The notes under the pieces: generated by a model | Told to the model about the DNA's origin: nothing | The model's database searches: none | What the model saw: only the letters and a program-made list of their open reading frames with translations | Virus record (IMG/VR): IMGVR_UViG_2541047680_000007 | DNA length: 21,502 nucleotides | Strand: one strand, 5' to 3' | Source of the DNA: a virus | Taxonomy: Duplodnaviria; Heunggongvirae; Uroviricota; Caudoviricetes | Shown here: positions 3,256-21,502 of the stretch, one piece after another | Numbering within the stretch: the first letter of the stretch is position 1 | How the letters are laid out: the number at the start of each line of letters is the position of its first letter | Translations under genes and position numbers: made by a program

Positions 3256-4086
3256 ACCGGACTCCTCCTGCGATCCCTTCTGATACTGTCATCAGCATTA
3301 CGTCATCCTCCGTCATGTCCGCCACATCCGGGGAAACGGGGATAACTTCATTCCCGTCCGGGCCAAAACGAACGCCTCCGGCAAGCCCTGCCGCTTTCTG
3401 CATCAGCACATCATCTTCAGGCTCTTCGTCAGCCTCGCGCCGGTTCAGCAGACTGAAATCCAGCGGATGCATATCCGGATCGCTGAAAAACAGGCTGAGT
3501 ACGGTGTACGTCAGCCCGGAAAAGTGCATATCCAGCAGAACATCATGAAAATAATGGGTACTGTAAAAGCGGTGCCAGTCGGCATACTCCGTGGATGACA
3601 TCCCGGCAAGCATGGCGCGCCAGTCGGGTCGCCCCATCTCACGCGCCAGTTTCAGGGCAAAACTCAGCTCACCGTCGAACACTTTCCCGCAGAAACAGGC
3701 TCTGCAGGCCCGGCGTCATCTGCCTGTTCAGGGGCATTATTCACCACAAACTCAGACATTCCGGACAGACGTAACACCACGTTTTCAGCCTGAGCAATTG
3801 CCTCCGTGGGCCAGGTGGTAAGCACTTCCTGCTCAATCTGTTTAACGGCTTCATTCATGGAAGGCTGCTTTGTCTTCTGCGGATGGTTATGCCACAGGGA
3901 CATCGCCACCACAAAAGCACCGGTTCTGATGGCGTCTTCCACAGTAACCTGCCGGTTGCTGTCTGACTCCGCCTGTTCTGCCTGCTGTTTCATCAGGGCG
4001 AGATGCTCAATACGCTGCAGGGCTGACAGTTCAGAAAGCGTGACGGTCACGCCGTTATGTTCAAATGATTCGGTTTTCAGGAACAT
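3248..4086 (-). CDS. T: Tail assembly protein G-T fusion, made by programmed -1 ribosomal frameshift from G into the T frame
   Basis: The T frame (3248..3682, MFDGELSFALKLAREMG...) has no independent start context and overlaps the G 3' end. Minus-strand sequence ...CTGCGGGAAAGTGTTCGAC... contains the canonical slippery heptamer G GGA AAG exactly where the -1 frame continues as VFDGELSF. Confidence 0.8.
3664..4086 (-). CDS. G: Tail assembly chaperone G
   Basis: 140-aa ORF ending ...SAGKCSTVS, located between V and the T frame. A slippery heptamer lies near its 3' end. Confidence 0.88.
   Translation of the reverse strand: MFLKTESFEHNGVTVTLSELSALQRIEHLALMKQQAEQAESDSNRQVTVEDAIRTGAFVVAMSLWHNHPQKTKQPSMNEAVKQIEQEVLTTWPTEAIAQAENVVLRLSGMSEFVVNNAPEQADDAGPAEPVSAGKCSTVS
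3682..3688 (-). other. Slippery heptamer GGGAAAG (programmed -1 frameshift site for G-T)
   Basis: Plus strand 3682..3688 is CTTTCCC, i.e. GGGAAAG on the coding strand, in the G/T overlap. Confidence 0.75.
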
Positions 4087-18261: not shown

Positions 18262-18555
18262 ATGAAAAAAATGTTGTTTTCTGCCGCTCTGGCAATGCTT
18301 ATTACAGGATGTGCTCAACAGACGTTTACTGTTGGAAACAAACCTACAGCAGTAACACCAAAGGAAACCATCACCCATCATTTCTTCGTTTCGGGAATTG
18401 GGCAGAAGAAAACTGTCGATGCAGCAAAAATTTGTGGTGGTGCAGAAAATGTTGTTAAAACAGAAACCCAGCAAACATTCGTAAATGGATTGCTCGGTTT
18501 TATTACTTTAGGCATTTATACTCCGCTGGAAGCGCGTGTGTATTGCTCACAATAA
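18262..18555 (+). CDS. bor: Bor outer-membrane lipoprotein (serum-resistance moron)
   Basis: 97-aa product from ATG 18262 (MKKMLFSAALAMLITGC AQQTFTV...), near-identical to remembered lambda Bor, with lipobox LITGC. Oriented opposite to the late operon, as in lambda. Confidence 0.9.
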   Translation: MKKMLFSAALAMLITGCAQQTFTVGNKPTAVTPKETITHHFFVSGIGQKKTVDAAKICGGAENVVKTETQQTFVNGLLGFITLGIYTPLEARVYCSQ

Positions 18556-19048: not shown

Positions 19049-19542
19049 TGCTGACCCCACAAACAGATTTCACGCTCAATCTCACGACGAGTCATGAGAC
19101 CTTTCCATTGCTTACCGCCAGCATATGTCCAGCGACGTAGCTGATCACATGCGCCTTTGATATCGCCCTGGTTTATTTTGCGAAGAAGCGTCGATGTTCT
19201 GAAATTGCCAGCACCCACGTTGTAAACGAATGAGTAAAGAGCGCCGCGCATTGTTTCCGGTATATCGACTTTGATGTACGGGTTAATTTGTCTGGCGACC
19301 GTGGCAAGGTCTTTATTCAGGAGGGCTTTGCATTCTGCTTTGGTATACGTTTTACCGAGCATGATGTCTTTTCCTGTATGCCCGTGACATACAGTCCATA
19401 CACCAACAATATCTTTGTATGGTATGTAGCTGACACCTTCCAGACCATCGTTACCACTTGGGCCAGTGATTAACACTGATGCTATAGCAATTGCTCCGCC
19501 ACCAATAGCAGCAGCAACGGCTTTTCGTAATGATGGAGGCAT
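19045..19542 (-). CDS. R: SAR (signal-arrest-release) endolysin, phage-21 R-type lysozyme
   Basis: 165-aa ORF. N-terminal [27 protein letters not shown] is a weakly hydrophobic Gly/Ala-rich SAR domain, followed by a T4-lysozyme-like catalytic region (E...D...T). Matches remembered phage 21 R. Confidence 0.9.
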
Positions 19543-19757
19543 TATTCACCTCTCGCAGCCTTGCGCTTATCTTCTTTAATCTTGAAATAAAGGTTTGTCA
19601 GGTACGTCAGCAGGCCAAATACCAGGCTACCCAGCACACCTATTGCCGCCCACTGTGAGGGCGTGACTTTATCGAGCAACTGTAAAAACCAGTACCCGGC
19701 ACTACCTGCTGAGGTACCATAGGCGACACCCGTTGTTAACTTATCCATGGATTTCAT
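19542..19757 (-). CDS. S: Pinholin (S21-type holin) with dual-start motif (Met1 antiholin / Met4 holin)
   Basis: 71-aa [74 protein letters not shown] with two transmembrane segments and a charged C-terminus. ATG codons at positions 1 and 4; Shine-Dalgarno GAGGTGGGG upstream. Confidence 0.9.
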
Positions 19758-19883
19758 AACCCCACCTCGCAGACAAAGCGGGTGTAAATTAAGGGGATAC
19801 TACGTATCGCAATAAAGGCAGAAACGTAACAGATTCGGAGTCAGTGAATAACTCAGGTATTGGGTTATCAGCTAATATCGAGA

Positions 19884-19919
19884 CTCAAAAAATGGAAAAA
19901 CCCGCTCGACGGCGGGTTT
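19884..19919 (-). terminator. Intrinsic terminator-like hairpin with U-tract on the minus strand, upstream of S (candidate tR'-type late-leader terminator)
   Basis: Plus 19898..19919 AAACCCGC-TCGACG-GCGGGTTT forms an 8-bp stem with 6-nt loop. On the minus strand it is followed by UUUUUCCAUUUUUU (reverse complement of 19884..19897). Confidence 0.5.
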
Positions 19920-20345
19920 AAGCTGTGTGACGAAGTAACCACTCTTAACAGCATAACCAATTTTTTACGTACGTAAACTACTAAATGATATTTGTGAGAA
20001 TGCCACCGAGTGTTCAAAACACCACCACAAATGCATAAGAAAACTTCAACAAATAACCAGTTAATAATTTCCGATGTTATTTTTAGTTTGTTTAAATTAA
20101 GCTAAAGAATTATAGAGCACTTATAAATAAGTGCCATTAATATAAATTAGCTAATAGATTTATTTTTGTTCAGACAAGAGCCATGAATAGGATTAGATAG
20201 AAAAGGTTCAGATAAAAATAGAGATCTACTTCACAAATTAAATGAGAAACTAAAACTTACATCTTGAAATAATCACATTGATTAGATGAATATTTATCGC
20301 GCAGTGACATCATTTTTTAATAATAGTTCAAAAAAAGGGCGTACA

Positions 20346-21317
20346 ATGAAAAAATTAACAGTGGCAATTTCTGCTGTAGCTGCATCAGTACTGATGGCGA
20401 TGTCTGCTCAGGCAGCTGAAATTTATAATAAAGACAGTAACAAGCTGGATCTATACGGGAAAGTTAATGCCAAGCACTACTTCTCCTCTAATGATGCAGA
20501 TGATGGTGATACTACTTATGCCCGTCTTGGCTTCAAAGGTGAAACCCAAATCAACGATCAACTGACTGGTTTCGGTCAGTGGGAATATGAATTCAAAGGC
20601 AACCGTGCTGAATCTCAAGGTTCTTCCAAAGACAAAACCCGTCTTGCATTTGCAGGCCTGAAATTTGGTGATTACGGCTCAATCGATTACGGCCGTAACT
20701 ACGGTGTAGCATACGACATCGGTGCGTGGACTGACGTTCTGCCAGAATTCGGTGGTGATACCTGGACCCAAACAGATGTGTTCATGACTGGTCGCACTAC
20801 TGGTGTTGCAACTTATCGTAACAACGACTTCTTTGGTCTGGTCGATGGCCTGAACTTTGCTGCTCAGTATCAGGGTAAAAATGACCGCACTGACGTAACT
20901 GAAGCCAATGGTGATGGTTTCGGTTTCTCCACTACTTATGAGTATGAAGGATTCGGCGTGGGTGCAACCTATGCTAAATCAGATCGCACTGACGGTCAGG
21001 TCGCCTATGGTAAGAGCAAATTCAATGCCTCCGGCAAAAATGCGGAAGTATGGGCTGCAGGCCTGAAATATGATGCGAACAATATCTATCTGGCTACCAC
21101 ATATTCTGAAACTCAGAATATGACCGTTTTTGGTAATAACCATATTGCAAACAAAGCACAAAACTTTGAAGCAGTAGCACAATATCAGTTTGACTTCGGT
21201 CTGCGTCCATCTGTTGCTTACCTTCAGTCAAAAGGTAAAGACCTTGGTGTTCATGGTGACCGAGACTTAGTCCTGAGAGATCCCCTCATAATTTCCCCAA
21301 AGCGTAACCATGTGTGA
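20346..21317 (+). pseudogene. nmpC: NmpC/Lc/OmpD-type general porin gene (prophage moron), 3'-truncated by IS10 insertion
   Basis: From ATG 20346: signal peptide [23 protein letters not shown], then the classical porin start [16 protein letters not shown] and porin blocks ([79 protein letters not shown]). After ...GDRDLV (about 21272) the frame enters IS10 and ends [14 protein letters not shown], lacking the roughly 40 C-terminal residues and terminal Phe of OmpC-family porins. Confidence 0.85.
21264..21272. repeat. Candidate 9-bp IS10 target site (GACTTAGTC) abutting the IS10 inside end
   Basis: The symmetric 9-mer GACT-T-AGTC immediately precedes the IS10 terminus and resembles the IS10 target consensus NGCTNAGCN. 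The second copy would lie beyond the window and cannot be checked. Confidence 0.45.
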
Positions 21318-21502
21318 ATAAATTTTGAGCTAGTAGGGTTGCAGCCACGAGTAAGTCTTCCCTTGTTATTGTGTAGCCAGAATGCCGCAAAACTTCCATG
21401 CCTAAGCGAACTGTTGAGAGTACGTTTCGATTTCTGACTGTGTTAGCCTGGAAGTGCTTGTCCCAACCTTGTTTCTGAGCATGAACGCCCGCAAGCCAAC
21501 AT
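21273..21502 (-). mobile_element. IS10 (IS4 family), inside-end 230 bp; the element continues beyond the window end
   Basis: Sequence from 21273 (CTGAGAGATCCCCTCATAATTTCCCCAAAGCGTAACCATGTGTGAATAAATTTTGAGC...) matches the remembered IS10 inside end. The minus strand encodes the transposase C-terminus up to a stop inside the terminal repeat. Confidence 0.85.
21286..21501 (-). CDS. IS10 transposase, C-terminal fragment (5' part outside the window)
   Basis: Minus-strand frame reads ...[70 protein letters not shown], with the stop at 21288..21286 inside the IS10 inside end. Confidence 0.8.

Follow-up and report, generated by a model that had tools for sequence, protein, structure and literature searches.

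In Escherichia coli K-12, the nmpC porin gene of the DLP12 prophage is described as unexpressed owing to an insertion element (PMC3333887; PMC11148124). The MG1655 gene consists of a 1040-nt fragment, an IS5B element (1195 bp, with CTAA duplicated), and a 58-nt fragment, and the reconstituted reading frame has 365 codons; IS5 follows nt 1040, in codon 347 of the 365, 19 codons from the end. Independent insertions at other positions of the same porin gene are found in two further laboratory lineages. In E. coli B strain REL606, IS1A divides nmpC into fragments of 579 nt (5′) and 513 nt (3′) (positions 11420 to 13279 of the REL606 locus, L007), and in the K-12 derivative BM28, which has an expanded Tn10-derived IS10R population, IS10R is reported to sit at codon 44 (PMC10044804, Table 1). 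With IS5 in K-12, IS1 in B, and IS10R in BM28, the recurrent silencing of this porin by insertion sequences (IS) is thus already known.

The porin gene occupies a well-defined cargo slot. The order Q-porin-S is the same in UTI89, phage PhiR63_2, and K-12 DLP12. Shiga-toxin phages carry stx in this slot, between Q and the lysis cassette, and there it has the orientation of the late operon and depends on pR′ for its expression, whereas the porin gene described here is antiparallel to the late genes. Lc of phage PA-2 and OmpD of Salmonella are grouped here with the same porin type by name rather than by direct sequence comparison. The K-12 prophage also gives rise to IpeX, a 167-nt DLP12 RNA that lowers OmpC and OmpF and that is made from the porin promoter within the porin transcript and then processed (PMC12197685).

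The DNA that we analyzed is a stretch of 21,502 nt (the window) held as IMG/VR virus record IMGVR_UViG_2541047680_000007 (Caudoviricetes). It comes from scaffold KE698805.1 (2.05 Mb) of assembly GCA_000456045.1, on which we followed the locus past the end of the window; positions on this extended locus carry the prefix L003 (window position 20346 is L003 10001), and all other positions are those of the window. The initial annotation had placed a porin gene between the late regulatory region and the holin gene S, and the gene does lie between Q (L003 12654-13037, minus strand) and S, antiparallel to both. Reading from Q (−), the order is porin (+), S, R, and Rz (−), iss/bor (+), an open reading frame (ORF) for a TonB C-terminal domain, Nu1, and the terminase gene. 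The S gene, which is transcribed divergently from the porin gene, is annotated as essD in UTI89 and in 729_xx_1_3_yolk. In inducible lambdoid phages such as PhiR63_2, ev017, and ev207, the porin gene in the Q-S slot is intact, whereas here it is interrupted close to the end of the window. The coordinates of the features are collected in Table 1.

Table 1. Features of the porin region of the window
Feature	Position	Strand	Remarks
Holin gene S (essD)	19542-19757	−	First gene of the lysis cassette; Pfam Phage_holin_2_1
Divergent S-porin intergenic region	19758-20345		588 bp, AT-rich; identical to UTI89
Interrupted ORF	20346-21317	+	309 porin residues plus 14 IS10 residues; TGA at 21315-21317
Prophage porin gene, 5′ part (NmpC/Lc/OmpD type)	20346-21272	+	Codons 1 to 309 of 360
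Porin signal peptide	20346-20414
GACTTAGTC, left copy of the 9-bp target-site duplication	21264-21272		Native porin nt 919 to 927
IS10-right, first 230 bp from the inside end	21273-21502	−	Terminal repeat CTGAGAGATCCCCTCATAATTTCCCC
IS10 transposase gene, 3′ end	21286-21502	−	Last 71 codons plus stop codon (21286-21501); runs off the end of the window

The 5′ part of the porin gene shows no difference (927 of 927 positions identical) from the corresponding part of the UTI89 gene, which is intact and 1083 nt long (360 codons; product WP_000737271.1). Going back from position 21273, the identity between the window and UTI89 is unbroken for 4,672 bases, and the two sequences part exactly at 21273. 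The segment from 20000 to 21272 (1273 bases) is 100% identical in UTI89, NU14, IHE3034, APEC O18, ABU 83972, and many other genomes, and it is 99 to 100% identical to the porin of PhiR63_2, ev017, and ev207, whose copies are annotated as OmpD, NmpC, or porin. The RefSeq name of the prophage gene, "ompC: porin OmpC," is misleading, the chromosomal ompC being another gene. When the porin was aligned with the reconstituted NmpC of K-12, 331 of the 365 aligned positions were identical (90.7% at the amino acid level and 84.9% at the nucleotide level), with the differences clustering in the presumed external loops. Together with the exact match to UTI89, this agrees with the NmpC/Lc type proposed in the initial annotation.

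The 309-amino-acid fragment matched the NCBIfam models of PhoE, OmpC, and OmpF with E values of 1e-121 to 1e-127. The alignments ran from model position 1 to approximately position 303 to 314 of 351 to 368, which means that the C-terminal seventh of the porin is missing, and the scores lay below the equivalog cut-offs, as expected of a truncated nonequivalog. Pfam Porin_1 is recorded for the ORF, which has the signal peptide and mature N terminus usual in porins as well as the L3 constriction-loop motif PEFGG (in VLPEFGGDT). Residues 24 to 360 of the intact homologue align with solved OmpC chains (E value, ~6e-137) as far as the terminal YQF. Judged from its sequence, the interrupted gene thus belongs to the porin family by descent, though in disrupted form. 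RefSeq places the start at the ATG at 20346, where the signal peptide begins; an in-frame upstream ATG at 20286 would give an ORF of 343 amino acids, and the PhiR63_2 record annotates the equivalent upstream start.

From position 21273 to the end of the window, the sequence is that of IS10. These 230 bp gave a 100% match to IS10 in hundreds of plasmids, including R100 (PGAP names the element "IS4-like element ISVsa5"). Because R100 carries Tn10, both of its IS10 copies could be compared directly, IS10-right being the copy that adjoins tetC/tetD and IS10-left the copy that adjoins a gltS-like gene. The window was identical to IS10-right at 230 of 230 positions and differed from IS10-left at 6. 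The terminal repeat at the break identifies it as the inside end, as the initial annotation had it, which places the transposase gene on the minus strand; the piece of it in the window corresponds in position to the annotated ISVsa5 transposase coding sequence of R100. The break between porin and IS10 falls exactly at 21272/21273. Since the matches to both the porin and IS10 are exact over hundreds of bases, chance is of no concern.

The sequenced contig ends at the end of the window, and the scaffold continues with 930 N (L003 11158-12087). Beyond this gap, the scaffold resumes with 213 bases of the IS10 outside end (L003 12088-12300), which finish with ...AATCATTAGGGGATTCATCAG and match R100 IS10-right at 212 of 213 positions. 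They are followed immediately by a second copy of GACTTAGTC (L003 12301-12309), after which the porin gene resumes at the exact nucleotide of the break, with the sequence AAGTATGTCGATG... (AAGTATGTCGATGTCGGTGCTACTTAC...). Beyond IS10, the remaining 51 codons are intact, as are the stop codon and a conserved 3′ untranslated region (UTR), and the Q gene follows; the whole of this sequence, from the porin 3′ fragment to Q, is 100% identical to that of UTI89 with its intact gene. The second GACTTAGTC and the resumed porin sequence past the outside end show that this is a simple insertion of IS10R with a 9-bp duplication and no deletion. Two details of the initial annotation change as a result: the part of the gene cut off amounts to 51 codons rather than approximately 40 (the intact gene has 360, and the break follows codon 309), and these codons have been displaced, not replaced.

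The initial annotation had also put forward GACTTAGTC as a symmetric target, and the duplicated sequence is indeed a perfect dyad. It occurs once in the intact porin gene, at the position given in Table 1, and it matches four of the six specified positions of the IS10 consensus NGCTNAGCN; four sites in the porin gene match five of the six, and all of these are asymmetric.

Taken together, these results lead us to conclude, with high confidence, that a lone IS10R has inserted in the porin gene of a DLP12-like lambdoid prophage, that the 9-bp GACTTAGTC was duplicated and nothing was deleted, and that the gene is very probably null. Of the other readings, the one that holds up best is that more than a lone IS10 has been inserted, such as a composite or rearranged element with its interior in the scaffold gap. 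This reading draws on the fact that 930 bases of the scaffold are N and on the role of IS10 as the flanking element of Tn10. Insertion of Tn10, though, places two outside ends against the target. Here, the junctions are formed by one inside end and one outside end, oriented to each other as the two ends of a single IS10 are, and the length with the estimated gap comes to 1373 bp (starting from the inside end at L003 10928), compared with 1329 bp for IS10, which argues for a lone IS10 and not Tn10. The 9-bp duplication, furthermore, indicates a single transposition event with precisely these two ends. We regard a larger insertion as quite improbable. The statement that the IS10 copy is complete and unrearranged should be read as resting on the two ends and the estimated size of the gap, in which approximately 886 bp of its middle would lie. 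The 930 N are themselves an estimate, against 886 bases expected for a 1329-bp IS10.

Still less probable, in our judgment, is a scaffolding artifact in which two contigs that end in a repeated IS10 were misjoined and the porin gene is not interrupted in one place. Short-read assemblies do break within repeats, and both contigs end in one; the break inside IS10 suggests that the genome holds more than one IS10 copy. A random misjoin, however, would not make the porin gene stop and resume at the same nucleotide with a 9-bp duplication, and each flank is collinear with its counterpart in UTI89 and other strains in which the prophage is intact. An IS10-mediated deletion or replacement, in which the 3′ end of the gene is gone and IS10 abuts what remains of the 5′ part, would fit the window, which shows only the porin 5′ part and an IS end, but it has next to no chance of being right given that the 51 missing codons follow the second GACTTAGTC past the outside end and are 100% identical to those of UTI89.

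The simple IS10R insertion leaves an ORF whose porin residues end in ...GDRDLV and whose tail is encoded by IS10. The 51 residues split off by the element (KYVDVGATYYF...VGLVYQF) include the C-terminal strand and the terminal Phe, as had been proposed, and the ORF in the window does not encode a complete 16-strand barrel with a C-terminal aromatic residue (the YQF β-signal). Alignment with OmpC structures, read with the established OmpF/OmpC topology, would put the break at the end of external loop L7, and the product would accordingly lack strands β14 to β16, loop L8, and the C-terminal ...VYQF. Work on PhoE and on the BAM pathway shows that the assembly machinery recognizes a porin, and the barrel closes, only when the last strand and a C-terminal Phe or other aromatic residue are present. 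With three strands and the terminal Phe missing, the truncated product is very probably nonfunctional: a 13-strand protein with a foreign tail should fail to assemble and would be expected to be degraded in the periplasm. On these general grounds of porin assembly, the allele is very probably null, and the ORF would be better annotated as a pseudogene (nmpC-type porin::IS10R) than as a porin of 323 or 343 amino acids.

The closest counterpart of this allele is nmpC::IS5 of K-12. Both genes belong to the same porin family and lie between quuD (Q) and essD (S) in the opposite orientation to the late genes, and in both, the element lies in the 3′ part of the gene and leaves a 3′ fragment and a conserved 3′ UTR behind. 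The parallel drawn in the initial annotation, that IS5 interrupts K-12 nmpC in the equivalent region, holds in that both are 3′ interruptions of the same region but not at the level of the site, since the IS10 site maps to codon 314 of K-12 nmpC, 32 codons upstream of IS5. The elements also differ (IS10R with a 9-bp duplication here and IS5 with the 4-bp CTAA duplication in K-12), as does the extent of the loss, which is 51 codons here, from what would be the L7/β14 border, and 19 codons in K-12, from what would be the interior of L8. K-12 nmpC carries GACTTAGTC at the homologous position (3880-3889 of the K-12 locus, L004), showing that the IS10 target is conserved between the alleles. Because the elements, the sites, and the alleles are all different, the IS10 and IS5 events are independent, as had been suggested for this moron. 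Unlike REL606 and BM28, which are laboratory lineages, the strain described here appears to be a natural isolate, with a prophage identical to that of UTI89 over 4.7 kb.

The insertion also bears on the sequence downstream of the porin gene. The conserved 3′ UTR (L003 12466-12630, outside the window) is 100% identical to that of UTI89 and ~95% identical to that of K-12 nmpC, and a GGGGCG...CGCCCC hairpin with a T-run, as in a Rho-independent terminator, lies on the porin strand ~160 nt past the porin stop codon. From its position and from the published account of the K-12 RNA, this UTR would correspond to the IpeX region of DLP12. An Rfam search of L003 9000-13200 for the IpeX family or any other RNA returned a single passing match, to RNA-OUT, and none in the 3′ UTR; a match to sau-19 in the same interval was noise (23 bits; gathering score, 80). 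A second strong hairpin, ATATGTTGCGGGAGGC TTTG CCTCCGCAACATAT, lies directly past the porin stop codon; its T-run is on the opposite strand, and it may therefore terminate transcription arriving from the Q side.

Transcripts from the porin promoter should now enter IS10 after the premature stop codon. Since IS10 separates the 3′ UTR from that promoter, an IpeX-type RNA would probably be silenced along with the porin, through polarity on the 3′ UTR. The RNA-OUT match (RF00240; 98.8 bits, with a gathering score of 41; L003 12186-12255) lies 115 to 46 nt in from the outside end. As RNA-OUT lies on the porin-sense strand and starts 115 bp inside the outside end, the pOUT promoter faces the porin 3′ fragment and the 3′ UTR. 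Read-through from pOUT could thus express an IpeX-type RNA without the phage porin, which, if true, would uncouple the two halves of a prophage porin-replacement module. We consider this unlikely; silencing of both halves together by polarity is the more likely outcome.

We then turned to the occurrence of the allele. The porin-IS10 junction was not covered by any match in 5,426 complete RefSeq E. coli genomes, in which each match was confined to one side of it, either IS10 or porin, and the exact 323-amino-acid fusion protein is on record on one contig only, KE698805.1 of GCA_000456045.1. The S-porin-Q segment is matched in 4,633 complete-genome records, and for the porin gene itself, we drew from these a spread sample of 60, which is not a census. 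The porin is covered in approximately 31 of the sampled rows, and among these, it is split by an IS only in three K-12 derivatives, which argues that silencing of the porin is not widespread. The IS10 hit has turned a known cargo gene of prophages into a pseudogene in a single draft genome; as an event it is ordinary, and its significance beyond annotation is slight. It adds one example from a natural isolate to the IS hits already recorded in this porin gene, and their recurrence fits a porin that is dispensable or counter-selected under some conditions.

Being antiparallel to the late operon, the porin gene needs a promoter of its own in the interval between S and the porin start (Table 1), which presumably holds it. 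A scan of this S-porin region for the σ70 consensus gave no plus-strand match and one hit, below the shuffle expectation. On the late strand, between S and the start of the porin gene, lies a hairpin that resembles a terminator (AAACCCGCCGTCGAGCGGGTTT, then a T-run; 19919-19898, minus strand). Transcription of the late genes, arriving from Q/pR′, must cross this hairpin, the porin gene (1.1 kb, antisense), and now also IS10 before it reaches the lysis genes.

The porin gene is not the only gene of this prophage to have been hit. An IS66-family element, ISCro1 (tnpA, tnpB, and transposase), occupies approximately 13073-15770, borders that we took from the annotation of a relative, with its transposase genes at 13108-15723 on the minus strand. 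A search for inverted and direct repeats of ISCro1 found nothing clear. The element splits the gene for the large terminase subunit, and the prophage is consequently unable to package DNA. This insertion is shared with APEC strains such as BEN2908 and 729_xx_1_3_yolk (100% query coverage), and other close relatives are without it (87% coverage). IS10 in the porin gene and ISCro1 in the terminase gene mark the prophage as decaying. No tRNA genes were found in the window.

A second cargo gene, which is intact, lies just past Rz at 18262-18555 (plus strand). It encodes an iss/bor-type serum-survival lipoprotein (Pfam Lambda_Bor) and is named "increased serum survival lipoprotein Iss" in relatives. 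Between iss and Nu1, an ORF of 108 residues ("TonB family protein"; 17455-17781, minus strand) encodes a TonB C-terminal domain. In one phage record, this ORF appears as a partial tonB-like membrane protein, and a longer version of 126 amino acids starts at a GTG codon.
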